64,000 bases of DNA from a virus (Duplodnaviria; Caudoviricetes): the IMG/VR virus record IMGVR_UViG_3300010429_001449; one strand, given 5' to 3'. Each line of letters opens with the position of its first letter. Position 1 is the first letter of the stretch. The translations under genes and the position numbers were made by a program. Shown one piece after another: positions 8,953-22,364 of this stretch. Under the pieces are notes generated by a model. It was given only the letters and a program-made list of their open reading frames with translations. It was not told the origin of the DNA and searched no databases.

Positions 8953-11439
8953 TTACTGCTCCTTTATGCCCAACTGTTCAGCAAGAACGCCTGCTATGCG
9001 TTTCTGAGTAGGCTCATCCACATTACGGAACAGGCGCACGTTGTTTTGTAGCCAAGAAAGCACATCTCTTTCGCTCCCGATTGTGCCTTCTCGCGCCGCA
9101 GCTTCAAATCTGCGCGAATCATCTTCAGAGAAGCGCAGTCTTTGGAACAAGCCACGCGCTGCGCGAAGAACGTCTTCTCCAAACTCCACACGCCTTCCGG
9201 TTGGTCTCCGTTCTCCGACCGGACGACGCTCTCTCGGAGGACGACGCGCCGGAAGTTCCCTTCGGCGCGGCGGCGTTGGCGCGGCTGTAGAGGCTGGAGC
9301 CGGGGCGGGAGGCGGCGGCGGTGTAGCCGGGGCTGGGGTCGGGGCGGGAGGCGGTGCGGGGGGTTCTGGCTCCGGAGTAGCCTCTGGCGGCGGTGGTTCT
9401 GGTTCCGGGCCTCGTTCGATAGCAGCCTTGGCGCGGTCTACCAACTCGCGATCTTCCGGACTCAAGTCGGTGCCTTCGAGCGCTGAAATGGCGTCGGTTA
9501 CTCTTTGAACATTACCCCGAGACCACTGCGTCTCGCGGGGATTCCGGCTGCGCTCCATCGAATCAATGTTGGTTGCGATAGCATTTATCGCTTGGCTGCG
9601 AGTCATACCGGCGGGCGTAGCAGCCGGGGTTGGCTCGGTCGGAGGCTCAGGCGCGGGCGGCTCGACTTCGGCGGCTGGCGGCGCGACTTCGGCGGTTGGC
9701 GGAGTGGCTGCGGCGGGCGCGGGGCCGAGAGGCAATACGCCCTGTACGCGGCGAGACGGCGGAGGAACAACCGGAGCACGCGGCTCACGCCCCACGGGCA
9801 ATTCACGGCTTTCCGGCGGACGAGCGCGGCCACCGGCAGTGCTTACGCCGTCTGCCTGCGATGCGTCTGGGACTCCTTGAATCTCGGTGTCGGATGGAAC
9901 CAAGGCTCGAACTGTGTCGAGATAAGAACGCGACTGCTTGCCGAAACGTGCGGCCAGCGCTGTCTTAGCGGCAGACAAGCGCAGCCAAAGTGCCTTCTCG
10001 TAAAGATTAGAGGCTTTTCGAGCTTTCTTGTAGTAGCTCCTTGCGGAAGCCTCCGTTACGCTGACCGCAGAGTTCATTATCATAAACGAAGACCCTGCGT
10101 AGACGGTACTGTGCCGATTCTGCGCAACCCACTCATCGATGCGCTGATTGAACGCATCGTCCGATTCATCAGCGCCACGAACCAAGCCGCCGCCCTCTTT
10201 GTCTCGGGGACGAACAGCGTCCTGGCGCAGCAAAGTATCATAGTCCGTGCCGGAAATGTAACGGCTGTTGTAGTGCAGCACGGACTCTCCCATCACGTCG
10301 ATGTACATTGACAAGGCCGCTCTGGTGTTGCCCGTCTTGCGAGCATCGGCAGACAAAGCCGCGCCACGGACGTTATACGTACCGAGACGCTCATCATCCG
10401 TGCCGATGTTTTCGTCAACAGACGTGAAGTACTTTTTCCAACCCTCAGCATCGCCGCCGCGCATCACGACATCGCGTCCCAAATAAGCGCTCTGCCTCCT
10501 AGCGCGTTCTTCTGGGAAAGCCTGCAAGTCTTCCTGCTTGGCGATTGCGGTGGTGTAATGAACCAAATCATCTCGAACACCCGTATAGATCATCGCCTCG
10601 CGTTGAAGTGCGAGAGCATTTTGCAACGCTTCTTGCTCTTTCGATGATTGGCCGCGTTGCTTGAACTGCTCGGCCTCGCCTATGAAACGCTGGCGCAGTT
10701 CTTCGCACTTTGCGAGATAGGCGTTGGCGTTCCTGACACCTTCGATGTTCTGTTCTCTCGCGCCAACACCCTGCATACCAGTTACGGTGGCGTTCAAACC
10801 TGCATCGTCCCAGTGCAACGATTGGTAGTCGCGCAAGTGGAACCACAAGGAGGCGTTCTTGTTGATGTCGTCCGCCATGAAAAACCGCTTGGTCAACATA
10901 CCGCCGGGCGTCACAAGACGCATAACGTCCTTGACGCTCATATCAGCCTCATTCAGGACGGCTTGCGCTTCGGCAGAGATTCCGGCCTTCCATGTTTTGC
11001 GCTCCCCGGCGTAAGCTCCGCCAGCGCCCCATTCTCCGCTCAGACCGCCTGTGGCCCGCTGGCCGATTGAAGGCAGACTGCCGCCGCGACGACCAGGACG
11101 GCCTCTATGACCGTGGTGGCCGCTGCCTTTGCCGCCCTTTTCGGTGTCCTCGGAACCGGACATCTCATCGGACGATACGACTTCTACTTCTTCGACTGGA
11201 TACTGCGGGGCCAAATCTTCCGGAGAAGATGCTCCCATCAAGGGGATATGACATTTCGGGCATTCCTTACCGCGTGCCGGAATACCGCGTTCGTGGGGCG
11301 ATTGATACCCGCACATCGGGCAATAATCAACCACGGCTCCGCCGTCCATCTGCGCGGGACCGCCCATACCACGCCCTTGTCCACGACCCTTGTCCAGCGA
11401 ATCAAACAATCGAGAACCGAAAGGATGCGGAACAGGCAT
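8953..11439 (-). CDS. large multidomain putative virion-internal protein
   Basis: N-terminal Zn ribbon (CPMCGYQSPHERG..CPKC), KGGKGSGHHGHRGRPGRRGGS motif as seen in phage head proteins, Pro/Ala-rich linkers; GGAGG RBS. Confidence 0.7.
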   Translation of the reverse strand: MPVPHPFGSRLFDSLDKGRGQGRGMGGPAQMDGGAVVDYCPMCGYQSPHERGIPARGKECPKCHIPLMGASSPEDLAPQYPVEEVEVVSSDEMSGSEDTEKGGKGSGHHGHRGRPGRRGGSLPSIGQRATGGLSGEWGAGGAYAGERKTWKAGISAEAQAVLNEADMSVKDVMRLVTPGGMLTKRFFMADDINKNASLWFHLRDYQSLHWDDAGLNATVTGMQGVGAREQNIEGVRNANAYLAKCEELRQRFIGEAEQFKQRGQSSKEQEALQNALALQREAMIYTGVRDDLVHYTTAIAKQEDLQAFPEERARRQSAYLGRDVVMRGGDAEGWKKYFTSVDENIGTDDERLGTYNVRGAALSADARKTGNTRAALSMYIDVMGESVLHYNSRYISGTDYDTLLRQDAVRPRDKEGGGLVRGADESDDAFNQRIDEWVAQNRHSTVYAGSSFMIMNSAVSVTEASARSYYKKARKASNLYEKALWLRLSAAKTALAARFGKQSRSYLDTVRALVPSDTEIQGVPDASQADGVSTAGGRARPPESRELPVGREPRAPVVPPPSRRVQGVLPLGPAPAAATPPTAEVAPPAAEVEPPAPEPPTEPTPAATPAGMTRSQAINAIATNIDSMERSRNPRETQWSRGNVQRVTDAISALEGTDLSPEDRELVDRAKAAIERGPEPEPPPPEATPEPEPPAPPPAPTPAPATPPPPPAPAPASTAAPTPPRRRELPARRPPRERRPVGERRPTGRRVEFGEDVLRAARGLFQRLRFSEDDSRRFEAAAREGTIGSERDVLSWLQNNVRLFRNVDEPTQKRIAGVLAEQLGIKEQ

Positions 11440-11491
11440 TTATCTAAACCTCCACTGGCAAACAACGTACAGAGCCGCTGCGTCTTAGCCC

Positions 11492-11520
11492 AATGTAAGA
11501 CAATTCGTGGGGGATGTCAA
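11492..11520 (-). promoter_or_regulatory. sigma70-type promoter, 17-bp spacer
   Basis: TTGACA-N17-TACATT. Confidence 0.55.
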
Positions 11521-11526
11521 CTCAAA

Positions 11527-11736
11527 TCAACCTCTCTTGTCTGACCGAGCAAGGATATCCTTCAGGGGGCGGCGGACGACAGTAACACGCCCGTCAGGAC
11601 CGATTTGAGGATCAAGAAAGAGTTTTGCGTCGCCGTTGAGTTCGACCGTCAAAGCATCTTCGTTTGCCTCTACGAATCCCGGCACAGGAAAAACAGCCGC
11701 CGGAGGGCGACGATTGTTTTGTTCTTGCTGTCTCAT
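11527..11736 (-). CDS. small partner protein, paralog A
   Basis: FP.P.F.E.NED.LT.ELNGDA.L.....GPDG......RPLK..LA, shared with 16774..16977; ATGA-coupled to the upstream gene. Confidence 0.8.
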   Translation of the reverse strand: MRQQEQNNRRPPAAVFPVPGFVEANEDALTVELNGDAKLFLDPQIGPDGRVTVVRRPLKDILARSDKRG

Positions 11737-14210
11737 TTCGACCGTCCTTCCAACAGAGTCCTGTCGAGCCGCTTCGTAAACTTATCTATGCGCTGACGAC
11801 TCGGCATTCCTTCTCTGAGATTGATCACGGCATCCCAATCAGTACCCATCATGGAAACAATACCCCACGCGCCTTTCTTGACTGACCCTCGCAAATGCGT
11901 CAAGTACTTCTCCTTCTCCTCGTCTTCCTTATCTTTGTCTTGGATAAAGTGCCGCACAGAAGCCCACCGAGCTTCGTAATAATTGTGGTCTTCAAGAAGC
12001 TGATCCAGTGTAGCTGCTAAATGCGTAGGAAGAGGCATCCTCAAGTCGGTGTATTCCCAGGCGTGATTAAGCTCCTGCGCTTGGGCAGTAAGCGCATCCT
12101 TCATCGTGCTAACATTTGCCCTATCTTGTTCGGAATCAACACTATCGGCCAAACGATCAAACATGCGTTCTACGAGAGACGTGAATCTGTCTCGGGCATT
12201 TTCGGCAATATGCTCACCGGCAAAGTCAAAGCCGCTTTTGGCCCATGTATAACCTCCGCGATCCAAGTTCGCGTGGCAAGTCATTGATTTTCGCCCGAAA
12301 GCCAGAGCCATCTGAGCTTCTCGAACCAACATGCTCCCGGCCCAGTGCGTGTCTTTTGCTCTTCCGGCCATAGATATCAACTCTGCTGTGATGTTTGATT
12401 TAGAATAGGTGCGTCGAATGGTAGCTACCTGCCCCTCGCTATCGCTTATCTCCGCAGTGTAAAACAGGCGTGGGTTAGCTCCACCAAATAAAGCGTAGGT
12501 GGTCACTGATACAGTAAGACCAGCGCCGCCCATAATACTCTCTAAGGTTTTGATAGACGGAGCGTAACCCATCGAGTCAAGCGTGGCTTTGATAACGTCA
12601 TCCGCTCCTTCTTGATAGTCGCCTGTAGCTTTCATGTCCTGAACAGCGCTCTCGAATGTAGCAGGCGACAGCCTCTGCGCAACGGCGTTCATACGAGCTT
12701 TTTCGGCTTCTAGCAACTGCTCTTGCTGCGCTTTTTCTTCAGAAGATAGTTCTGCCGGTTGCTGTCCGCCGTGTTTCAAGGCGGTCAAGAATGTACTCAC
12801 AACGTCGTCCGATACGTCCTTGTTGGTCGCATCCGCCGCGAGAAGGTTTCGATAAAGCTCATTAAGGTCTCCCGAAGATAAGGCGGAACCTTGTCGGTAT
12901 GTATCCAAAAGTTGGTTCATGCGGTTGTCTGAGATATCTCTGTAAAGACTAGCAGACCCTAACGATGCTGATTCCTCATCTTCTTCGCTAAGATCGCGGC
13001 TGCTAAGCGCATCATCCAAGTCTCGTAAACGCCCTCGGAGGTCGTCGTCGGGAAACTCGGACTCGAAGTCATAAACGGCGGCTTCTAAGTTATCTCGGTC
13101 ATCGCTGGTAAGGTAGCCTTCTGATTGATAGCGATCAACGTAGTATTCGATGCTGCCCATCAACTCAGTATATCGCTCGGTTTCTTCCGTAGAGGCGCCG
13201 GACACAGCGTCTTCGACAGAATCGGACACAAGAGCGTACAAATCCGGTGACGCATCCTCCAAAGAGGATGCTAAGGAACGAAGGCTGTCCTGATCACTGC
13301 GGTCGAGCGAGCCGTCGCGGGCAAAGGACTCTAACAGGTCTTGTATCTTGTCGAGATCATCCAAGCTCTCGTTCTCTTCGTACGCCTCTATCTGAGCCTT
13401 GACCTCATCCGTTATCAAGTTCGGATAACGTTTTTCGTAGCGGTCTAAACTCTCGTCAAACTGTTTCAAGTCTTCCGCGCTGGTTATGCCACTGAAATCT
13501 CCTGCGTTGATTCGGGCTAATTGTTCTGAGACTTGCTGCTTGAACGCTGTCGACAACGCCGCAGAGCGATCCGCACGAGCCATAACCGCGTTGCGGCTTT
13601 CTTCGCTCTTGATGTCCTCATAAGACCCTCGCCCAAGTACGCCGGGAAACCGCTCCGCCCAACTATCGATGATGCTGATTAGCCGGTTGTAATCGTCAGG
13701 AGTAACGAAGGCGTCTTCGTTTCCTTCTTTTAAGGAATTGAGTGCGGCGTAAATGGCGTTACCTTCGTCCTTTTCCGCTTGAGGAATGTCTTCCGAAGTA
13801 TAGGAACGCTCCGACGAAGGGCGTTCCTCCGCAGGAGCCGACGGCGCGGGTTCTTCGTCCGGCAAAGGATTAGCTTCCCTTACTGCCGCTACGTAAGATC
13901 GCTCACGTTCTTCCCATCCTTCTTGTTCCCGTTCGGCCAGCATCCTACTCGCAAGTTGCGCGGAAGTGGTAGGCTGTCCGGAAGCGTCTTTGAGGTCTTT
14001 TAGCCGATTCAAGTCTTCGGTCGAGAAAAGCTGATCACTAATAGCCCCGCCAGGCTCAACCAAAGCTAAACGTCCTTCGTCTCCGTGCCCTACGAACATA
14101 TAAGCACCGGTGCGTTCCGTGAACTTGCCTTCCCGGTCGTGCCAAGGATTCTGCTTCTCGACATTGCGAGATTTTTCGAGCGCAATGCTTACCCAGTCGT
14201 AAACACGCAT
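11733..14210 (-). CDS. large paralog 1: YDW/NPWHD leader, acidic helical middle, C-terminal GNAT-like domain
   Basis: MRVYDWV..LEKS..VEKQNPWHDREGKF; C-terminal AFGRKSMTCHANLDRGGYTWAKSGFDF. Confidence 0.75.
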   Translation of the reverse strand: MRVYDWVSIALEKSRNVEKQNPWHDREGKFTERTGAYMFVGHGDEGRLALVEPGGAISDQLFSTEDLNRLKDLKDASGQPTTSAQLASRMLAEREQEGWEERERSYVAAVREANPLPDEEPAPSAPAEERPSSERSYTSEDIPQAEKDEGNAIYAALNSLKEGNEDAFVTPDDYNRLISIIDSWAERFPGVLGRGSYEDIKSEESRNAVMARADRSAALSTAFKQQVSEQLARINAGDFSGITSAEDLKQFDESLDRYEKRYPNLITDEVKAQIEAYEENESLDDLDKIQDLLESFARDGSLDRSDQDSLRSLASSLEDASPDLYALVSDSVEDAVSGASTEETERYTELMGSIEYYVDRYQSEGYLTSDDRDNLEAAVYDFESEFPDDDLRGRLRDLDDALSSRDLSEEDEESASLGSASLYRDISDNRMNQLLDTYRQGSALSSGDLNELYRNLLAADATNKDVSDDVVSTFLTALKHGGQQPAELSSEEKAQQEQLLEAEKARMNAVAQRLSPATFESAVQDMKATGDYQEGADDVIKATLDSMGYAPSIKTLESIMGGAGLTVSVTTYALFGGANPRLFYTAEISDSEGQVATIRRTYSKSNITAELISMAGRAKDTHWAGSMLVREAQMALAFGRKSMTCHANLDRGGYTWAKSGFDFAGEHIAENARDRFTSLVERMFDRLADSVDSEQDRANVSTMKDALTAQAQELNHAWEYTDLRMPLPTHLAATLDQLLEDHNYYEARWASVRHFIQDKDKEDEEKEKYLTHLRGSVKKGAWGIVSMMGTDWDAVINLREGMPSRQRIDKFTKRLDRTLLEGRSK

Positions 14211-14219
14211 CGCCGCCTC

Positions 14220-16769
14220 CTAGAACAATCCTTGCTCGCCTTCTTCTTCCATCCTTTGACGGAAAGGCCCGGCGGCCTCGCGCAACGTCTTTCGCTCCAC
14301 TTTCAGTTTACCGTCAGGACCGATGGAAATGTCTATAGCCAACTGTTTATCTCCGCCCAAGTTCTCCATCGCCCAAGCCTGTTCTGCATCAATAAGTCCC
14401 GGAAACAAGAAGTCGGCAGCTTGACGCTTCTGTCGCGGACGTTCATCAACTACTTCCTTGCCGAACAAGTCCTTTTTCACGGAAAAAACTCCATCAAGAG
14501 AAGCTTGAACGGGTTGCGGCGACTTTTCTTCCGGCATTTCCGCCTGCGGAGACGCAGGCTTTGCCGGACGCCACTGCAACCGATGCCTGCGCTGGCGTTC
14601 TTCGCGCTTGCGCAGAGGCTCCAAAGTTCTAGCCAACATGTCGTCAAATCTTTTACGACCGGGAGTATCGGGAGTCAAATCAAGACGTGCCCCCCACGAT
14701 GAGCCGTAAGTCATGTAACGCCCTATGAGACCGTTTTTCAACGAGCCGCGCAAATGCTCTTCGAGATTCTGTCCGTAATGCCGCGCACGCGACTTGGTGT
14801 GAGGTTCCAGCGCCGCAACTATATCGTCTCGGTAGTCTTGCGGCAAAGTTATAACGAGATCGGAGAAATCCCACGCATGATACAGCGGGGGGCGACCTGT
14901 TTGAGGATCAACCGCAAACAAGGAATCGATTGTCTGGCGCAACGGCGTTACTTCGGCGGCAATCTCCTCCCGACTCTTACCTTTGGCCGACATAACTGAT
15001 TCCAAGGTAGTTACAAGATAACCAAGCCCCTGCTGAAAGTTCTGCGTGACATTCTCTCTCTCGTAATGGCTTTCAAAGTCAAAACCGATGTGCCCCCACA
15101 TATAACCTCCTCTGTCTATGTTGGCGTGGCACCTCATCTCTTTCCTTCCATTCTTAACGACCATATCCCCTTCCTTAGCCAACATGTGAGCATTAACCAT
15201 CTTGTCTTTGTACTCGTCTCTCGCCGTGTTCAAGTGAGCATCAACACGGTCTTTGAAATAATGGCGACTCATGTGCATAACTTCTTCTCCCTCAGAGTTT
15301 TGGATAGAAACAGTATAGTAGAGGTTAGGATTATCACCAGAAACGAGTCTATAACCTATGTGCGTCGTATGTCCCGGCGCGTCGTAGGCATAAATGTTCT
15401 CCAGAGCCGCTTTTGTAGGCGTCGGTCCTAATTCTCGAAGCGCCTGCTGAATCCGACGTAACTCCGCTCGGTATCCGCGCAGAGTCGGATCGAGACCCAT
15501 GTCTTGCGCGGCCCGCTCCGCGTTGGTGGTCTCTAGGTGAGCGTCCTTTGTGCGATCTTCTACTTCTCCCAGCACGTCTCGTTGAGAGAGTTCTTCCAAT
15601 AACTGCTCCGCATCTGCGCTCAGAGACGGAAGAGCAGAAACAGCAACGGATTCGGGGCGAACGGCACGCGCCAAACGTCTTTCCGCAGTCAGAAAGATAC
15701 CGCTAGATATAACACCGGGATACTGACTGGCAGCTTCGTCGAAAAACGAGATAGCATCGCGCACATCGTCGGCGTTCAAAGTCTCAGAAGACGAAATCAT
15801 ATCTCGATAATAACGATAACTTTCTTGCGTATCCGCTGGCAAATCACTGGTAGAGCTAAAGTACTGCACGTTAGTTTCTCCCGCGTCAAACTTAGCGAGC
15901 ATACGTTCAGCCGCGTCTCTCCAATGGAAATAGTAAACATCTAATGCCCCATTAACTTGCTCGTTAAGCTCATCGTATCGTTCCGTGAAGGCACGCAAAC
16001 CTTCCGGATCGTTGGCATAGTCCCCGTGTTGTATCTTAGTATCTTCTCGGTATATAAAGTTTGCCACGTCGTCTAGCAACGACCCCCCTGCTAATTCACG
16101 GAGTGAGTTATTTGCAGAGAGTCGTATCTTGGTATAAGGGAATTCGTCGAAAATACCGGGATTCTGAGCCTCAAGTCGCTGCGCGACATCGGCTGTTTGT
16201 CGTATGTCGCGGGTAGAATAATAAAGGGAGTCCACTAATCCTGCAAATTCGTTCCGCGTTTCGAGAGGCAAGCTGAAATAGTCCCCGGCGGGCGGTGCTT
16301 CTTCTTCTTCTCTTTCTTCTTCTGAGGGCGCTGCTTCAGCTTCAGGCTCGCCGACAAGTAGTGTTTCGCCTTGTGTCTCGCCCGGCGTCACGATTGTTAA
16401 CTCTTCGGCAGTCGTCGCTTCCAGAGGATTAGCCTCTCGAACAGCAGCCGCGTAAGCCCGTTCCCGTTCTTCCCATCCCTCTTGCTGCCGCTCCGCCAAC
16501 ATGCGCTGAGCAATCCTTGCCGAAGTTGTAGGCTGCCCATCGTCATCCTTGAGGTCTTTTAGGCGATTCAAGTCTTCATCGGAGAAAAGCCGGTCGCTGA
16601 TAGCCCCGCCAGGCTCTACGAGCGCAAGACGCCCCTCGTCCCCGTGCCCAACGTGCATGTAAGACTCGCCGCGACGCGCAAATTTGCCTTCCCGGTCGTG
16701 CCAAGGGTTCTGCTTGGAGACATGGCGGGACTTCAACAGAGCATATCCGAGCCAATCATAAGTACGCAC
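14220..16769 (-). CDS. large paralog 2: GNAT-like domain with the small partner fused at the C-terminus
   Basis: Likely GTG start at 16769 after AGAGGG; NPWHDREGKF; CHANIDRGGYMWGHIGFDF; tail FLFPGLIDAE..LGGDKQL..SIGPDGKLKVERKTLRE matches the partner family. Confidence 0.75.
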   Translation of the reverse strand: MRTYDWLGYALLKSRHVSKQNPWHDREGKFARRGESYMHVGHGDEGRLALVEPGGAISDRLFSDEDLNRLKDLKDDDGQPTTSARIAQRMLAERQQEGWEERERAYAAAVREANPLEATTAEELTIVTPGETQGETLLVGEPEAEAAPSEEEREEEEAPPAGDYFSLPLETRNEFAGLVDSLYYSTRDIRQTADVAQRLEAQNPGIFDEFPYTKIRLSANNSLRELAGGSLLDDVANFIYREDTKIQHGDYANDPEGLRAFTERYDELNEQVNGALDVYYFHWRDAAERMLAKFDAGETNVQYFSSTSDLPADTQESYRYYRDMISSSETLNADDVRDAISFFDEAASQYPGVISSGIFLTAERRLARAVRPESVAVSALPSLSADAEQLLEELSQRDVLGEVEDRTKDAHLETTNAERAAQDMGLDPTLRGYRAELRRIQQALRELGPTPTKAALENIYAYDAPGHTTHIGYRLVSGDNPNLYYTVSIQNSEGEEVMHMSRHYFKDRVDAHLNTARDEYKDKMVNAHMLAKEGDMVVKNGRKEMRCHANIDRGGYMWGHIGFDFESHYERENVTQNFQQGLGYLVTTLESVMSAKGKSREEIAAEVTPLRQTIDSLFAVDPQTGRPPLYHAWDFSDLVITLPQDYRDDIVAALEPHTKSRARHYGQNLEEHLRGSLKNGLIGRYMTYGSSWGARLDLTPDTPGRKRFDDMLARTLEPLRKREERQRRHRLQWRPAKPASPQAEMPEEKSPQPVQASLDGVFSVKKDLFGKEVVDERPRQKRQAADFLFPGLIDAEQAWAMENLGGDKQLAIDISIGPDGKLKVERKTLREAAGPFRQRMEEEGEQGLF

Positions 16770-16773
16770 GATG

Positions 16774-16977
16774 TTACCCTCTCTTCTTAGCAGCAAGAAG
16801 TTCTTTCAGCGGCCTGTCGGTAAAGACAAGTTGTCCGTCCGGCCCGCGTGTGATCTTCGTGTACAACGAAGCATCACCATTGAGTTCCAACGTCAAATCA
16901 TCCTCGTTGTCCTCAATGAACTTCGGGTAAGGAAACTCGGTGTGCGCTGTCTTATCCTTCGGGTTGGGGGCTGCCAC
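16774..16977 (-). CDS. small partner protein, paralog B
   Basis: Homologous to 11527..11736. Confidence 0.8.
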   Translation of the reverse strand: MAAPNPKDKTAHTEFPYPKFIEDNEDDLTLELNGDASLYTKITRGPDGQLVFTDRPLKELLAAKKRG

Positions 16978-19507
16978 GTCTTGTCTCCCGGAAAATGTGC
17001 TTGTCCAAACGTCGTGTGTACTTTTCGATGCGCTTGCGGCTCTCTGCGCCGTCGCGTAGATTCATGTGAGCGGCCCAGTGAGAACCGAGAAGGGCTGCTT
17101 TGCCCCAAGCCCCTGCCTTAACGGCACCTTGCAACTGGTCTATGAACTGTTGCCGCGCTGCGGGGCGATCTGCGGCATCCACAGAGTATTGTACCTCTTG
17201 CCAACGACGCTCGTAATAATTATCTGCTTCCAGTGCCGCGTGAACCTTCTCCGTATATTCTTTTGAAAGAGGCATTCTGTAATCGGCGTACTCCCAAGCA
17301 TGACTCTGTTGCTTCTCTGCCAAGTGCGTTGCGATAGAGCGCAGGTCTGCCGTTTCCTCTCTTGTTAATCCTGCTTGTCTCTCTACCGCAGTAAAGAGCG
17401 TGTCTATCGTTTGCGCGTAGTGGGTGTAAAACCTCTCCGCCACGTCTTCCGACACAAAATCAAAACCGCTCTTGGCCCAAGAGAATCCGCCGCGATCCAG
17501 ATTGGCGTGGCACCACATGGACTTGCGCCCGAATGCAATAGCCATCTGAGCTTCTTTGCTCAAGATGCCCCCCGCCCAAGCAGTGTTGCGGTACTTCGGC
17601 GACATATGAATCAAGGACGCATCTATGTTACGCAGCCCGTAACCTCTGGTTATCTCGGCGACTTCGTTGCCGTCTTGATCCCGTACGTAAACGACATAAC
17701 CGAGTGCCGGGCGATCCAAACCCCCGGTAAGCTCGTACCCTGACACGGACACAGTCAATCCTTCGCCGCCATATATCTGCTCTAACGAGGCTTTAGATGG
17801 AGCGTGACCGAGTTTTTTCAACATAGCCTCGATGGTTGACGGAGACTTTTTGTAGTATTCAGTGGTGTCTCGAGCGTAACTCTCTGCTGTTGCGGGCTGA
17901 TAGTGCTGCGCAACCCGTTCCAACTCCTGTTTTCTTGCTTCGGCGGCTTGCGCCTGAGCCGGATCAACGTCGGACGGAGGCTGCTGCCCCTGATAACGAA
18001 GAATGTTGGAGATGACTGCGTCTATTTCACCGCCAAGCTCGCGGTCGTCGCGGTCTGCCGCATGAACGACTTGCATAAGAGCCGTTACTTCTTCGGCAGA
18101 CAGCGCGTTACCGCTTGTGTAAGAATCAAATAGTCGGCGAGCCGACGTTCCTAAACTAGAGCGCAAAGCCTCATCGGCAGGACGTTCTTCTTCCTCTTCT
18201 TCGTCTGCGTCTTCGGTGGGCCCAGCATCTTCGCCAGCATCTTCGCCAGCATCTTCGCCAGCGTCTTCCGGCGCACTTTCCCACTCCAAAGCTTCCACGC
18301 TATCAGAAATAATCTCATTCAAGTTACCATAGTGATCCGTGATGTCCTCGTCTGGAAACTCCCGCCTGAAACGCGCTACCAAGTCTTGCAGTTCGCTTAG
18401 CTCTTCGGAGTTCAAGAGACGCGGACGACGACCTCTTCTTACGTAAGGATAGATTTCATCTACGATAGCGGAACGGCGTTCTTCTTGCTCGCTCTCGCGT
18501 GCCGCCTCCTCGCGGCCCTCGAAATCCAACGCACTTGCAACAGTGTCTCTCACATCAGACGCCAAATCCGGGTATTTTTCGCTCAATTCGCCATAAAGCT
18601 CCTCCAACTTAACCCCATTCTCTCTTGAGATTTCTTCGTACTCGCTAAACTCGTCCAAGATAGGCGATATACCTTCGTACAAGTGGAAAAGATCGCTTCC
18701 TTGCAGTCGGCGCACGCCTTCCCCCAACGTTCCTTCCGAGACAGCCGCAGGGTCTCTAGTCGCAAAGTCCTCCAAATTCTGCTGCAAACCGTCGAGAAAA
18801 GTCATGTTCAACGACTCTCCGCGCAGAACAGTGTTGATGCGTTCTTGCAAGTCGGAAACAAGCGCGGCCTTTCGTTCCTCGGATTGCTGCGCATGTTCTG
18901 CTATAAGCTGCCGCGTTTCATCGCTCTTGATGCGTTCAGCAATCTCATCAGGAACCGCCCCCGGATAATCCGTCTGGAAATAATCAACGATTTCAAGCAG
19001 ACGGTTGTACTCCGCCGGAGTCAAATAAGCACCTTCGTCATCCCGCGAGAGTGCGCTTATAGACGCAAAGAGCGTATTACCTTCGTCGCGCAGCGGTTTC
19101 GGTATGTCTCCCGCCGAATACTGACGAGAAGGCTCGGACGCCGCGCCTTCCCCCAGACCCTCTACCATCCTACGAATGGCTTGCCGTTCTCGGTCTTCCC
19201 AACCTTCAGAACTCCGCCCGCGCAATAGATACCGCGCAACTTGTGCAGAGCGACTCAATTCCTCTCCGGTCTTCCTCGCCCGCATCTCGGAACTTCTTAC
19301 AATACGCCTCAAGAGATTGCTGCCGGGCAACGACTCGGCGCGAAACCGCCCGCGCTCCATGACGGCTATAACAGGCGTGTCGTGGCTGACATAAAGCCTT
19401 GCGTTCTCACGAGATGTGAACTTCCCTTCATCGTCGTGATAGGGATTCTGCTTATCAATCTCGCGTGCCTTGGCCAGCGCTATGCCAAGCCAGTCATAGG
19501 GTCTCAC
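16952..19507 (-). CDS. large paralog 3: YDW/NPYHD leader and C-terminal GNAT-like domain
   Basis: MRPYDWL..LAKA..IDKQNPYHDDEGKF; CHANLDRGGFSWAKSGFDF; GAGGAGG RBS. Confidence 0.75.
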   Translation of the reverse strand: MRPYDWLGIALAKAREIDKQNPYHDDEGKFTSRENARLYVSHDTPVIAVMERGRFRAESLPGSNLLRRIVRSSEMRARKTGEELSRSAQVARYLLRGRSSEGWEDRERQAIRRMVEGLGEGAASEPSRQYSAGDIPKPLRDEGNTLFASISALSRDDEGAYLTPAEYNRLLEIVDYFQTDYPGAVPDEIAERIKSDETRQLIAEHAQQSEERKAALVSDLQERINTVLRGESLNMTFLDGLQQNLEDFATRDPAAVSEGTLGEGVRRLQGSDLFHLYEGISPILDEFSEYEEISRENGVKLEELYGELSEKYPDLASDVRDTVASALDFEGREEAARESEQEERRSAIVDEIYPYVRRGRRPRLLNSEELSELQDLVARFRREFPDEDITDHYGNLNEIISDSVEALEWESAPEDAGEDAGEDAGEDAGPTEDADEEEEEERPADEALRSSLGTSARRLFDSYTSGNALSAEEVTALMQVVHAADRDDRELGGEIDAVISNILRYQGQQPPSDVDPAQAQAAEARKQELERVAQHYQPATAESYARDTTEYYKKSPSTIEAMLKKLGHAPSKASLEQIYGGEGLTVSVSGYELTGGLDRPALGYVVYVRDQDGNEVAEITRGYGLRNIDASLIHMSPKYRNTAWAGGILSKEAQMAIAFGRKSMWCHANLDRGGFSWAKSGFDFVSEDVAERFYTHYAQTIDTLFTAVERQAGLTREETADLRSIATHLAEKQQSHAWEYADYRMPLSKEYTEKVHAALEADNYYERRWQEVQYSVDAADRPAARQQFIDQLQGAVKAGAWGKAALLGSHWAAHMNLRDGAESRKRIEKYTRRLDKHIFRETRRGSPQPEG
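18222..18268. repeat. 12-bp in-frame tandem repeat (EDAG x~4)
   Basis: ccagcatcttcg x3 plus a degenerate fourth copy. Confidence 0.9.
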
Positions 19508-19580: not shown

Positions 19581-19667
19581 TGGTGGGCGCGGAGGGATTT
19601 GAACCCTCACGTCCTTTCGGACAACAGCTTTTGAGACTGCCGCGTCTGCCTGCTACGCCACGCGCCC
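19581..19667 (-). tRNA. tRNA-Leu(CAA)
   Basis: Cloverleaf; loop CTCAAAA; long variable arm; encoded CCA. Confidence 0.95.
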
Positions 19668-19686: not shown

Positions 19687-19714
19687 AGTATAACAGCGTG
19701 GGCGGGAATGTCAA
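19687..19714 (-). promoter_or_regulatory. repeated promoter TTGACA-N16-TATA(C/A)T, first of 14 copies (others at 20087, 24042, 27200, 28303, 30174, 36557, 41090, 43383, 45790, 47576, 51066, 52194, 62483)
   Basis: Consensus -35 and -10 boxes, usually with TG extension, in intergenic gaps; spacer counted as 16 bp in every copy. Confidence 0.9.
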
Positions 19715-20156: not shown

Positions 20157-21422
20157 TCGCGGAGAGAAACCGCCGCGCCTCAAAAAAGGAAAGAAAATCT
20201 CCACTATTCGCTTGACCTAGCGGCAAACGAGTGGTAAGATTCAGTGCGTGGAGATACAAAGAACAATCCAGATCGTTATAGAGCCGAGCGAAGAACTCGA
20301 AGATACCCTCGCGGTTTTTACGCAAGTGTGCAATCAGATTTCGCCAACGGCTTACAATGGCGGAGAGTTCCTGAGACACATTGATCTTCATCACGCTGTT
20401 TATTCCAGTATTAGGAACGTTCTGTCTAGTCAAATGGCATGTACTGCCATTCGCCTGACGGCGGGAGCTTACGTTGCTATCAAAAAGAACAGACACGATA
20501 TCACTAAGCCCGCTCGATTCCTAAAGCCAAGAGCGTTGTTCTTGATTGGCAAAAGAGGTCGAGACGCATCGTTCCGAAGAGACGGGCGGCTCTCGATCTG
20601 GACAGTACGCGGACGAAAAAAGTTGTCTTATTCCGTCCCCGAATACTTCAAGCCGATGTTGGCTTGCGCCAAAACGGTCGATAGCATCAACGTCGTCAAA
20701 AGGAACGGAAAGCTTATCGGCTTTGTGTCGATCACCATTGATGTGCCGGACGCCGTCGGCGTCCATCCCGTAGGGGTTGATCTCAACGAAACTAATCCTG
20801 TCGTTGCTGTCGACGACAGAGACAGGGAGTTGTTTGTTGCCGGTGCTGTTCAGAAAGAACGGAAAAGGCGAATCCGCAAGACCAGAAAACGTCTCCAGAA
20901 ACGGCTTGCTTCTCGAAAGGCAGAGGGAAAGTCCACGAAGTCTGTTGGACGAGTCCTCAAACGGCTGCGAGAACGGCAAAGCCGATCCACCAAAGACTTC
21001 TGTCACGTCGTATCGAAAAAGCTGGTGAACTGGAGTCCTAAGAACTCGGTTTTGGTCTTCGAGGATTTGTCCTTTGAGCAGGGAGATCAGGAGCACGGAA
21101 AGGCGTGGAATCGAAGGTTTCACGAATGGCCAAGAGGCCAGATCGTGGAAATGACGACGTACAAAGCGGAAGGAAAGCACGGAGTGGTTTTCATTAATCC
21201 CGCCTACACGTCTCAGTTCTGTTCCCGTTGCGGTTTATTTGGACGCCGTAATCGTCATTCTTTCGTTTGTCCTCATTGCCAGTTCCGTTGTCACGCTGAT
21301 CTCAACGCCGCCAAGAACATTCGTAATCATTTTGCCGTGCTACGGCATGGTGGGCTGCCGTCGATCAGCCCCGAAGCATCTTCGAGATGCAAGCCTCCGG
21401 CTTTAGCCGTGGGGTAATCGAC
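20157..21422 (+). mobile_element. IS200/IS605-family tnpB-only (IS1341-like) element; left end approximate
   Basis: Right-end hairpin aagcctccggctttagccgtgggg..tcgac at 21391-21422; upstream homology with the 63.2-kb copy begins near 20157; no tnpA. Confidence 0.75.
20248..21417 (+). CDS. tnpB: RNA-guided endonuclease TnpB
   Basis: RuvC motifs VGVDLN, VFEDL and HADLNAAKNI; Zn finger CSRC..CPHC; own promoter TTGACC-N17-TAAGAT with an apparently leaderless start. Confidence 0.95.
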   Translation: MEIQRTIQIVIEPSEELEDTLAVFTQVCNQISPTAYNGGEFLRHIDLHHAVYSSIRNVLSSQMACTAIRLTAGAYVAIKKNRHDITKPARFLKPRALFLIGKRGRDASFRRDGRLSIWTVRGRKKLSYSVPEYFKPMLACAKTVDSINVVKRNGKLIGFVSITIDVPDAVGVHPVGVDLNETNPVVAVDDRDRELFVAGAVQKERKRRIRKTRKRLQKRLASRKAEGKSTKSVGRVLKRLRERQSRSTKDFCHVVSKKLVNWSPKNSVLVFEDLSFEQGDQEHGKAWNRRFHEWPRGQIVEMTTYKAEGKHGVVFINPAYTSQFCSRCGLFGRRNRHSFVCPHCQFRCHADLNAAKNIRNHFAVLRHGGLPSISPEASSRCKPPALAVG

Positions 21423-22364
21423 TGGGCCTTTTCGATTAAATCTTTCGGGTATATCTGTCCCCTCGAAACATATCTTGAACCAATTACCTTCTACGCGGGC
21501 CTGAGCGGTCTCGGCTTCGAGCCGCTCCAATTCCTCCGTATTCAGAGGGGAGAATCCCTGCGTCCAATTGACTAGATTCACGAGTTGGTCTTCGTTGTCA
21601 ACACCTACAATGGCGCAATCGATGTCGTGCGAGAGGACGTAGCGCAAAGCCAAATGTGCCGCCGCGTCAATGGCGACGGGCAGCTTTTCCAGCATAGGAC
21701 CACGGGCCATTACCTTCATTGCTATAGCACCCATCCCTTTATCTACGAGCTTCGGTAGAAGCACGTGTTTGAAGGACGGCCCGTGGATGTCTGCCATGTT
21801 CAAGGCGAAAAGGCACGTATCAAAATGCGGGAAATAGTTGATGAACTCGCGGAGCAGGACGGGATCAGAGTGTCCGGTAACACCGATGTGATCAACCAGA
21901 CCCTGCTGCTTCGCCTTGTACATAGCCAAGACGACGCCCTTTTCGAGCGTTTTGAAGTCGCGGTCTTTCCATTGGAGGTTGTGCAACTGCCATAGATTCA
22001 CCCGCCGTCCCAGAAGGCGCATAGATTCTTCCAGAAGGCGCATAGAGCCGTCATAGGAACGTTCGTGCGTCTTTGTGGCTAGGAAGACCTCTGCTTCCGG
22101 TAATCCGCGCAGCGCCCATCCTAGACGCGCCTGCGACTCGCCGTAGCCGGGGGCTGTATCGAAATACTTGATGCCGAGATCGAGCGCCCTACGAATGATT
22201 CCGATAGCCTTGCCGCCGGATTTGCCGTACTGAAGGTAGCCTTGACCCCCCAAACCCAGACGTGTTACAGTCTCGCCGGTATTGCCGAGAGGCTTCAAGG
22301 GTATGTGCAAGGACGTTGGATCATCGGCGGGCAGTCCTTGCCGAACCCAGTCATAAAGACCCAT
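21327..22364 (-). CDS. aldo/keto reductase; C-terminus runs into the IS right end
   Basis: LGNTGETVTRLGLGG, YFDTAPGYG, FLATK, LWQLH, IGVTGH, AMKV motifs. Confidence 0.9.
   Translation of the reverse strand: MGLYDWVRQGLPADDPTSLHIPLKPLGNTGETVTRLGLGGQGYLQYGKSGGKAIGIIRRALDLGIKYFDTAPGYGESQARLGWALRGLPEAEVFLATKTHERSYDGSMRLLEESMRLLGRRVNLWQLHNLQWKDRDFKTLEKGVVLAMYKAKQQGLVDHIGVTGHSDPVLLREFINYFPHFDTCLFALNMADIHGPSFKHVLLPKLVDKGMGAIAMKVMARGPMLEKLPVAIDAAAHLALRYVLSHDIDCAIVGVDNEDQLVNLVNWTQGFSPLNTEELERLEAETAQARVEGNWFKICFEGTDIPERFNRKGPVDYPTAKAGGLHLEDASGLIDGSPPCRSTAK

Follow-up and report, generated by a model that had tools for sequence, protein, structure and literature searches.

Proteins of the GNAT superfamily have a mixed alpha/beta fold (beta1-alpha1-alpha2-beta2-4-alpha3-beta5-alpha4-beta6-7), and competent members carry the acetyl-CoA pyrophosphate motif A, Q/R-x-x-G-x-G/A, at the beta4-alpha3 junction. 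In the TacT-TacA and AtaT-AtaR systems, a GNAT fold is paired with a small cognate partner gene; the toxins stand alone, are ~175 aa long and have an intact acetyl-CoA site, and the antitoxins are upstream DNA-binding proteins. GNAT domains have been described in polyvalent proteins of phages and conjugative elements, for which delivery from the capsid was predicted (Iyer et al. 2017, PMC5512222); ART domains, peptidase domains and head genes are associated with this GNAT family. The MuF polymorphic toxins are large phage-borne proteins with a variable C-terminal domain, and 89% of their genes have a small ORF directly downstream (Jamet et al. 2017, PMC5576092). Among proteins of the phage head, the T4 capsid-targeting sequence (CTS) is found on diverse internal proteins (PMC3012670), and giant phages have tandem paralog families of internal head or ejection proteins with N-terminal propeptides, whose incorporation needs a helper protein (PMC5694885).

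The array analysed here consists of three tandem paralogous genes on the minus strand of a 64,000-nucleotide stretch of Caudoviricetes DNA, referred to here as the window. At roughly even confidence, we read the array as encoding tagged cargo proteins that are probably packaged into the capsid and carry a predicted pseudo-GNAT domain that would bind a partner. The proteins resemble the GNATs of polyvalent proteins, including the Jera gp5 fusion, in their domain family and in the signature A-N-x-D-V-G-G-Y-A-W-A-R-x-G-F-D-F. In contrast to polyvalent and MuF GNATs, each array protein has one domain, a leader replaces the MuF or polyvalent backbone, the Q-G-x-G-x-G/A loop has been lost, and a partner of ~50 aa is present that is seen nowhere else in the family. 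With one recognisable domain per protein, and with payloads on separate leader-tagged proteins, the array differs from polyvalent proteins in the sense of two or more distinct effector domains per polypeptide. As in MuF toxins, a small ORF comes after a large phage-borne protein with a variable C-terminal domain (the genes of 67 and 69 aa that overlap the ends of paralogs 1 and 3), and the motif NPxHDxxGRF often follows MuF signatures; unlike the MuF toxins, the array is without a MuF domain, its C-terminal domain looks inactive, and the small ORF is fused in one paralog. Neither a MuF domain (Phage_Mu_F/minor capsid protein 2) nor a portal-binding domain was found in the paralogs with Pfam and PHROGs.

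Alt and the internal proteins of T4, together with the giant-phage ejection paralogs, likewise combine a short N-terminal tag on unrelated or fast-evolving proteins with tandem paralogs near head or packaging genes; however, the leader of the array has no sequence similarity to the T4 CTS, and its packaging is a prediction. The likeness to TacAT and AtaRT lies in a GNAT fold with a small partner gene, whereas the partner in the array is downstream or fused and matches no Pfam or PHROG family. It does not resemble an RHH/DUF1778-type antitoxin, having no Pfam match and being predicted to form a helix, a beta-hairpin and a helix when fused.

Architecture of the array and its N-terminal leader

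The three paralogs share a common build of leader, acidic repeat-containing middle and C-terminal domain. Paralog 1 (16952..19507, minus strand, 851 aa) has its leader at aa 1-33, its acidic middle at aa 46-540 and its GNAT-fold domain at about aa 545-851. Paralog 2 (14220..16769, minus strand, 849 aa) has the same order, with the GNAT-fold domain at nt ~14562-15464; the ORF list placed its start at TTG 16796, but GTG 16769 is indicated by homology and by P0009, the gene as called in the database (849 aa). Paralog 3 (11733..14210, minus strand, 825 aa), whose GNAT-fold domain occupies aa 530-825 (nt 11736-12623), has a mosaic make-up: over the first 118 aa it shares 79% identity with paralog 2, and the remainder is nearer to paralog 1. 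An earlier note, made from the letters of the window, had described three tandem paralogs of ~850 aa with a common leader and a CHAN.DRGG.W..GFDF block, and this description held, with the strings as quoted. A distant fourth paralog, P0008, lies in the same genome ~110 kb from the array. Downstream of the array, a neighbouring gene (8953..11439, minus strand) encodes a protein of 828 aa with an N-terminal zinc ribbon and Gly/Arg-rich and Pro-rich stretches; it is reported as context, with putative membership only, and has an orthologue of 958 aa at the matching position in the relative L012. Pfam and PHROGs gave nothing above threshold for any of the six proteins, including this neighbour and the N-terminal and middle parts of the paralogs.

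The array sequence was recovered identically, with no differences reported, in contigs of three anaerobic-digester runs, of which the depth-30 contig may not be independent of the window, and a syntenic relative was present in two other assemblies; the array is thus not an assembly artefact. Contigs of four runs showed no variant anywhere in the array, with a C5 tract discussed below covered, among the pieces listed, by the depth-30 contig only. Short identical array contigs were also seen in one metatranscriptome library, which is no proof of transcription.

The middles are 400-490 aa long with a net charge of -43 to -60 and a pI of 4.4 (paralog 1, aa 46-540) or 4.2 (paralog 3). Four repeat anchors, ~60-75 aa apart and each ending in [FYS]P[GND][LVD], were recognised in that of paralog 3; the middles evolve fast, and their repeat anchors are degenerate. 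The description of the middles as helical comes from the earlier reader.

The leader of ~33 aa is made up of a YDW helix and NP[WY]HDxxGKF. The pattern YDW[LIV]xx[AG]LxK followed by [HRK]Dxx(x)Gx[FT] forms the N-terminus of at least eight large ORFs of the genome; at least five leader-bearing large proteins lie outside the array and carry unrelated payloads, among them a PI3/4-kinase-like protein and an enzyme that adds CCA. The leader is therefore, as in the T4 CTS, a short N-terminal tag common to otherwise unrelated proteins of one phage. In IMG/VR, 89 of 96 matches to NPxHDxxGRF fell in the reading frame of an ORF of 150 aa or more; among 80 distinct long ORFs, the motif lay within 60 aa of the first Met in 25 and right after the MuF signature HPxCxC in 8. 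An XkdF-type prohead protease and ART-PolyVal are among the payloads that follow N-terminal copies. These matches confirmed the expectation that motifs of this type occur in MuF-linked and polyvalent-type phage proteins. No relevant literature was found on NPxHDxxG[KR]F, which PMC5512222 and PMC5576092 do not mention. The leader most likely directs its proteins into the procapsid, from which they would leave with the DNA; it would then be a portable targeting tag like the T4 capsid-targeting sequence.

The C-terminal GNAT-fold domain and its cofactor loop

The C-terminal domain of ~300 aa belongs to the GNAT superfamily at the fold level. Residues 530-825 of paralog 3 were modelled by AF2 with a pLDDT of 86, and in a structural search against 48,161 chains the best 50 matches were all GNATs (Z 7.2-9.9), the alignments spanning model residues 23-287; the best match reached Z 9.9 over 130 aligned residues (3.3 A). 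TacT2, TacT3 and AtaT were among the matches at Z 7.6-8.1, scores that dozens of other GNATs also reach. A helical insertion of ~120 aa precedes the last strand (model residues 263-268). The earlier assignment of the CHAN block to the beta5-alpha4 region of a GNAT fold was thereby borne out, and the Foldseek search that had been proposed as a check likewise returned a list dominated by GNATs (E ~1e-2). A sequence search against the PDB gave no match, and 50,697 cultured-phage records gave none either when searched by megablast and tblastn with the array, with paralog 3 and with the domain of P0008.

A profile of the domain obtained 1691 matches at E<=1e-3, many of them in proteins that are 1000-6000 aa long and contain the domain 2-8 times, and reached E values down to 1e-38 for distant family members in polyvalent-type proteins; the matched stretches in those proteins correspond to Pfam Acetyltransf_1 and lie beside ADPrib_exo_Tox and Peptidase_Mx. 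In cultured phages, the domain family is fused to a minor capsid protein in the TerL-portal-X-scaffold-capsid slot. Inspection of the translation of gp5 of Microbacterium phage Jera showed PF06152 at aa 14-353 and the family signature in the C-terminal part, and gp24 of Alteromonas phage R7M is a further fusion of this kind. The signature, G-x(7)-A-N-x-D-V-G-G-Y-A-W-A-[RK]-x-G-[FY]-D-[FW] with a C-terminal G-K-x-x-L-G-x-x-W strand region, is recognisable in the paralogs, which keep all of the invariant or near-invariant residues (G639, A647, N648, G652, G653, Y654, W656, G660, F661, G787 and W790), and their clade keeps the structural core A-N-x-D-x-G-G-Y-x-W-x-x-x-G-F-D-F. The view of the array as an undescribed system was thus too strong, since the GNAT domains of polyvalent phage proteins are described (PMC5512222) and match the profile; the family is known from phage proteins delivered from the head, and what appears to be new is an apparently inactive form with its own partner.

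The array clade departs from its family at motif A. An alignment of ~210 family domains, five of them members of the clade, gave a family motif of Q-G-x-G-h-[GA], in which, among the other members, Q (~79%), G (78%) and the central G (90%) are conserved, followed by a hydrophobic residue and G/A; Y635 (76%) and H609 (56%) are likewise conserved. In the array clade alone, the motif is replaced together with two to three other conserved residues: its five members have K/R, D/N and H/A/M/I/L at the Q, G and G positions, and A/V and A at Y635 and H609, respectively. As stated in the earlier note, motif A is degenerate in all three paralogs, reading R-N-T-A-W-A, K-D-K-M-V-N and K-D-T-H-W-A in paralogs 1, 2 and 3, respectively, whereas the corresponding stretch of P0008 (K-Q-G-Q-G-I-G) contains an intact motif, Q-G-Q-G-I-G. 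The relatives read K-D-S-I-W-A and K-D-T-L-L-C. Because the residues of the cofactor loop are replaced, the domain is probably a non-catalytic pseudo-enzyme that would act as a binding module instead of transferring acetyl groups. The departure is mild in paralog 1, which retains R-x-x-A-x-A, and the string [KR][DN][TS]xWAG common to paralogs 1 and 3 and P0007 could mark an altered ligand site that still works.

The partner module in split and fused form

Two small genes overlap the ends of their paralogs. For partner 1 (16774..16977, minus strand, 67 aa, GTG start), the overlap with the end of paralog 1 is 26 nt long and in the +1 frame, and GGGAGA lies 6 nt upstream of the start; the overlap contains the C5 tract, where one base less would join both frames. 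Partner 3 (11527..11736, minus strand, 69 aa) shares an ATGA overlap with the stop codon of paralog 3 and is preceded by GAAGGA. In paralog 2, the module is fused in frame as residues 793-840 (P0002 numbering; 14277..14420, minus strand). Pairwise BLASTP aligned partner 3 with partner 1 (56% identity over 54 aa, E 2e-19) and with the paralog 2 tail at residues 793-840 (40% over 48 aa, E 6e-10), and partner 1 with the tail of the orthologue P0010 (E 1e-8). Both the split and the fused forms recur in a related phage contig, where the fusion is kept as P0010. The proposal of one module occurring as two overlapping genes and one in-frame tail was therefore upheld, with the pattern kept in the relative. 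The proteins are not notably acidic, in disagreement with their earlier description as small acidic genes (pI 8.3 and 5.2).

The module of ~50 aa consists of FPxPGF, a GPDG beta-hairpin and then PLK. When fused to paralog 2, it was modelled by AF2 as a helix, a beta-hairpin and a helix with block-mean pLDDT values of 76-88, behind a linker of ~55-65 aa that is predicted to be disordered (pLDDT 30-50), and the free partner alone has a disordered model in the ESM Atlas (pLDDT 0.46). No match to an antitoxin or immunity family was obtained with Pfam and PHROGs.

The partner is restricted to the pseudo-GNAT clade: in a collection of 5.8 billion proteins, IMG/VR and the whole genome, it is known as three free genes and two fusions only, always with that clade. 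No homologue was recovered outside the clade, as a free or longer protein, in IMG/VR or the rest of the genome, at a sensitivity limited for a 50-aa module. P0008, with its intact motif A, has no partner. The clade was seen in two phage lineages, so the co-occurrence statistics are thin. These distributions and the recurrent fusion suggest that the pseudo-GNAT domain probably binds the partner module. In copies 1 and 3, an overlapping gene would supply the module at a 1:1 ratio, and in copy 2 a flexible linker would keep it attached.

Genome context and competing readings

A sigma-70-like promoter, TTGACA-N13-TGTTATACT (19687..19714, minus strand), lies upstream of paralog 1 and of a tRNA-Leu(CAA) gene placed between the two (19581..19667, minus strand; ARAGORN). 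This element occurs 14 times in the window, against 0.03 copies expected by chance, and 73 times on the minus strand of the genome; it serves tRNA and small-gene regions, and the copy ahead of the array is the last before an 80-kb block without any. Early or middle expression of the array would fit, since its promoter class is absent from that block, and the promoter argues mildly against late expression. In a quick look for a late promoter, GTGTTACACT was seen twice in intergenic gaps. The array stands at the head of the promoter-poor genome block, 5 kb upstream of the large terminase gene. T4-type protease, portal and capsid families gave no match in the genome, and the control genomes were equally silent.

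The proteins could instead be early or middle host-takeover proteins that stay within the infected cell and never enter the capsid. The leader would then have another task, for example oligomerisation, regulated proteolysis or localisation to a membrane or to a compartment of the phage. We consider this unlikely. A consensus promoter directly upstream, of a class absent from the 80-kb block, speaks for it, as does the location of the leader-bearing CCA-enzyme and kinase-like genes in promoter-rich regions, and the metatranscriptome contigs would fit within the limit given above; however, NPxHDxxGRF recurs beside MuF signatures, on ART-PolyVal proteins and on a prohead protease of the XkdF type, cultured phages have the GNAT family joined to minor capsid proteins, and the array borders on the genome's terminase side. 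If the proteins do enter the head, their role could be mainly a structural one in the internal head or ejection channel, where they would act in bulk, with the acidic repeats and the paralogy reflecting that role, the GNAT fold being vestigial and the partner an assembly chaperone. The tandem internal-head paralogs of giant phages, with propeptides and a required helper (PMC5694885), and the strong negative charge of the middles agree with such a role, which is nevertheless quite improbable in our estimate, given that no similarity to head or inner-body families was found in Pfam and PHROGs and that the GNAT core and helical insertion are well kept (34-42% identity) while the middles diverge between paralogs, which points to the domain as the selected part of the protein.

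The earlier note had proposed injected effectors with immunity, chaperone or completing subunits, immunity being named first. In a toxin-immunity pair, an active GNAT would acylate a host protein or aminoacyl-tRNA, and the cell that produces it would be protected by the small protein, as in GNAT toxin-antitoxin pairs or MuF polymorphic toxins with immunity genes downstream. Such pairs usually have a small ORF immediately behind the effector-like gene (89% in PMC5576092), TacT and AtaT are among the structural matches, and [KR][DN][TS]xWAG is conserved in one sub-lineage. Against these points, the glycines of the cofactor loop and nearby family-conserved residues are replaced, whereas P0008, in which they are intact, lacks a partner; two phages carry the partner permanently fused in cis, which would be odd for an immunity protein; the partner matches no antitoxin or immunity family in Pfam or PHROGs and is disordered when modelled alone; and TacT and AtaT score no better than many other GNATs. 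The immunity part of the proposal is thus unsupported, and we give the toxin reading a low probability. The preferred reading remains that of a modular phage cargo protein present in three diverged copies, each with a portable tag, a variable middle and a pseudo-GNAT domain that would bind its partner.

The clade is rare, being known from two phage lineages; the giant phage itself is uncultured, and the roles are predicted from sequence and models. A bolder extension, which we hold to be doubtful, is that NP-x-H-D-x-x-G-[RK]-F, which the YDW helix precedes in the array, is a general and portable capsid-loading tag of tailed phages read by MuF, portal or scaffold proteins, and that the dead GNAT, turned into a specific receptor for a co-evolving peptide, forms with it a packaged two-part binder or decoy acting at host entry. 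If such a general tag were true, injected cargo would be predictable from sequence alone; there is no general sequence-based way to tell which phage proteins enter the host with the DNA, and the leader is a testable candidate for such a tag. In the array, an enzyme fold of the polyvalent arsenal has apparently been turned into a non-catalytic module with a peptide partner, caught in both split and fused form, and the array thereby offers a compact case for how effector domains may become binders.

Organization of the gene array

The 268.8-kb IMG/VR virus record, whose bases 129158-193157 correspond to the window, has an estimated completeness of 77%, and its source is a giant phage. The minus strand carries nearly all long ORFs of the window, which also contains 18 tRNA genes. 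The earlier note described an array of tandem paralogs with small partner genes, and this observation was confirmed. In the direction of transcription, a consensus sigma-70-like promoter (19714-19687) comes first, followed by tRNA-Leu (19667-19581), paralog 1 (19507-16952; 851 aa), partner 1 (16977-16774; 67 aa), paralog 2 (16769-14220; 849 aa, including an in-frame partner module), paralog 3 (14210-11733; 825 aa), and partner 3 (11736-11527; 69 aa), all on the minus strand. A zinc-ribbon protein (8953-11439, minus; 828 aa) lies directly downstream, and the large terminase (6289-4232, minus) is located 5 kb beyond the array. The 828-aa protein combines an N-terminal CPxC...CPxC with a stretch rich in Gly, Arg, and His and with long segments rich in Pro, and its family search gave no match. 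The window DNA was present without reported differences in contigs from three anaerobic-digester metagenomes, and no match to it was found in cultured phages. Short contigs identical to 11459-11694, 16685-16835, and 19111-19436 occurred in an activated-sludge metatranscriptome library, a weak hint of transcription given that DNA carry-over is possible.

Paralogs 1-3 could be aligned end to end, with a highly conserved N-terminal leader, strongly divergent middle regions of pI 4.2-4.4 and net charge -43 to -60, and 34-42% identity over the C-terminal 300 aa. Paralog 3 is a mosaic, with residues 1-118 sharing 79% identity with paralog 2 and the remainder closer to paralog 1; its middle contains four anchors approximately 60-75 aa apart, each ending in [FYS]P[GND][LVD]. 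The small proteins and the paralog 2 tail were homologous (E = 2e-19 and 6e-10), in agreement with the proposed split and fused forms of the partner. A related 15-kb contig, present in both an ENA and a JGI assembly, shares synteny with the array, in the order aldo-keto reductase, P0007 (a 780-aa paralog) with an overlapping 70-aa partner, P0010 (an 823-aa paralog) with the partner fused, and zinc-ribbon protein (958 aa, zinc ribbon duplicated, same place downstream of the array). Because this contig holds both the split P0007 and the fused P0010, both arrangements of the partner are conserved, the fused one being orthologous.

Partner 3 starts at an ATGA overlap, and the start of partner 1 is a GTG in the +1 frame that makes this gene overlap paralog 1 by 26 nt; Shine-Dalgarno-like sequences precede both partners. 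Within 16955-16977 (minus), the overlap of paralog 1 and partner 1 includes a C5 tract (agCCCCCaa), confirmed in a contig of depth 30, and loss of one C would fuse the two frames. The tract possibly marks a recent frameshift split or slippage-prone expression giving both forms, or there is just an overlapping gene initiated at a GTG.

The GNAT domain, its cofactor loop, and the partner

The C-terminal domain had been called a GNAT, and structure prediction agreed: the AF2 model reached a pLDDT of 86, Foldseek returned mostly GNATs with weak E-values, and the top 50 matches of an exhaustive structural comparison were all GNATs (Z up to 9.9, approximately 130 residues aligned). Since the structural alignments span model residues 23-287, strand 263-268 represents the last GNAT strand, placed behind a helical insertion of approximately 120 aa. 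A family profile built from five domains and searched against 1.84 billion representatives (E <= 1e-3) retrieved 1691 proteins, many of them 1000-6000 aa long with 2-8 domain copies. Pfam GNAT models matched five of the seven family proteins tested, coinciding with the profile-matched stretches in at least two, and ADP-ribosyltransferase (ART) or peptidase domains adjoined the GNAT in two. This architecture is that of the polyvalent proteins, which contain GNATs, often beside ART, and for which capsid delivery has been predicted (PMC5512222). Some cultured phages encode a fusion of a family member with the minor capsid protein, located between the portal and scaffold genes; Jera gp5 carries PF06152 together with the family signature (the latter by inspection), and R7M gp24 is a second cultured-phage example of the fusion. 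The domain almost certainly has the GNAT fold and belongs to this family.

In an alignment of approximately 210 family domains, the family retains Q-G-x-G-h-[GA] at the beta4-alpha3 junction. Outside the clade formed by paralogs 1-3, P0007, and P0010, Q, G, and the central G were conserved at 79, 78, and 90%, respectively. An alpha3 Tyr (76%) and a beta4 His (56%) or Asn (18%) are also conserved in the family. The degeneration of motif A reported earlier extends to all five clade members, whose loop reads K/R, D/N, and H/A/M/I/L and in which A/V replaces the Tyr and A the His. All structural invariants of beta5-alpha4 and of the final strand are retained. Among the aligned domains, this loss was restricted to the clade. 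Judged from these residues, the clade domain is probably non-catalytic, with the caveat that [KR][DN][TS]xWAG, conserved in one sub-lineage, could be a remodelled ligand site. P0008, a fourth paralog of the same genome (821 aa; C1:256784-259249, L015:85-2550, minus; approximately 110 kb away, outside the window), retains K-Q-G-Q-G-I-G and has a YDW leader with a Cys/Gly-rich second element, an N-terminal half without assignment, and weak Pfam GNAT matches; P0011 (703 aa) is its orthologue from another metagenome. P0008 combines the intact loop with absence of the partner module; presence of the partner thus goes together with a degenerate site.

The partner was found only with the clade, in three cases as a free gene and in two as a fusion. 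When the natural fusion was modelled, the partner formed a helix, a beta-hairpin (block-mean pLDDT 76-88), and a helix behind a linker of approximately 55 residues (pLDDT 30-50). The ESM Atlas model of the free partner alone is disordered (pLDDT 0.46). Allowing for the difference between the two predictors, these models fit a peptide that would fold upon a partner surface, and it probably binds the GNAT-like domain. An immunity function, one of the roles that the earlier note had suggested for the partner, was unsupported.

The leader and the question of packaging

The leader reads YDW[LIV]xx[AG]LxK, then NP[WY]HDxxGKF or C-x-G-rich-C-[RKH]Dxx(x)Gx[FT]T, and it heads at least eight large ORFs in the genome, including a CCA-adding enzyme (PolyA_pol + HD) and a PI3/4-kinase-like protein. 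An aldo/keto reductase (21327-22364, minus; Pfam E = 3e-19), which has a syntenic counterpart in the related contig, starts with MGLYDWV..GL, a partial YDW leader without the second element. In P0007, an in-frame TAA replaces the Tyr codon of NPYHD in both assemblies (L012:4449-4451, same position in L013), and the gene call begins at an ATG 27 codons past it; this is either a genuine nonsense allele giving a leaderless protein or a case of read-through.

The pattern [HRK]D-x(2,3)-G-x-[FT] occurred within the first 70 residues of 18 of 157 proteins, nearly all family matches, and most of the 18 read NPxHDxxGRF or HPRDxxGRF. A DNA-pattern scan of IMG/VR for the NPxHDxxGRF-type motif gave at least 96 matches. 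Among the matches listed, 89 of 96 were in frame in ORFs no shorter than 150 aa, and their flanks were conserved. Distinct long ORFs among them numbered 80; the motif was at most 60 aa from the first Met in 25 of these and right behind the MuF HPxCxC signature in 8. Some contigs (L088, L070, and L080) carried 2-5 copies in neighbouring proteins, and payloads following N-terminal copies included an XkdF-type prohead protease, ART-PolyVal, and DUF3626. Many phage contigs (L018-L097) contain a fuller form, [hydrophobic]-x-K-[FAY]-N-P-[YNHW]-H-D-x-x-G-R-F-[TAS], and our literature search found no published description of the motif. By analogy, the leader may be compared with the T4 capsid-targeting sequence, a short tag on diverse internal proteins (PMC3012670), and with the propeptides that giant phages have on paralogous ejection proteins (PMC5694885).

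Expression timing may count against packaging. The promoter before the array is one of a class, TTGACA-N13-TGTTATACT (or -TATAAT/-TATATT), that has 14 copies in the window (19687-62510, minus; chance expectation 0.03) and 73 along the minus strand of the genome. Its -10 sub-variants cluster by region. A minus-strand pattern scan found none between genome positions 68.3 and 148.8 kb, a block that includes the terminase; the array opens this 80-kb stretch without copies of the class, directly after the last promoter of that type. The class is abundant elsewhere in the genome, and its place before the array may mildly disfavour late expression and, with it, packaging. The sequence CGTGTTACACT precedes a ribosome-binding site in two intergenic gaps of the block (genome C1 approximately 127563-127656 and approximately 78997-79050, both outside the window). 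It is a candidate late promoter that would consist of a -10 alone, similar to the -10 of the abundant class. On balance, virion packaging of the leader-tagged proteins is slightly favoured.

We regard the array as a variant of the polyvalent/MuF-type phage GNAT, in which each leader-tagged protein carries a single domain whose cofactor loop is probably dead and has a partner peptide of its own. Our reading of the array as a whole stands at roughly even odds.
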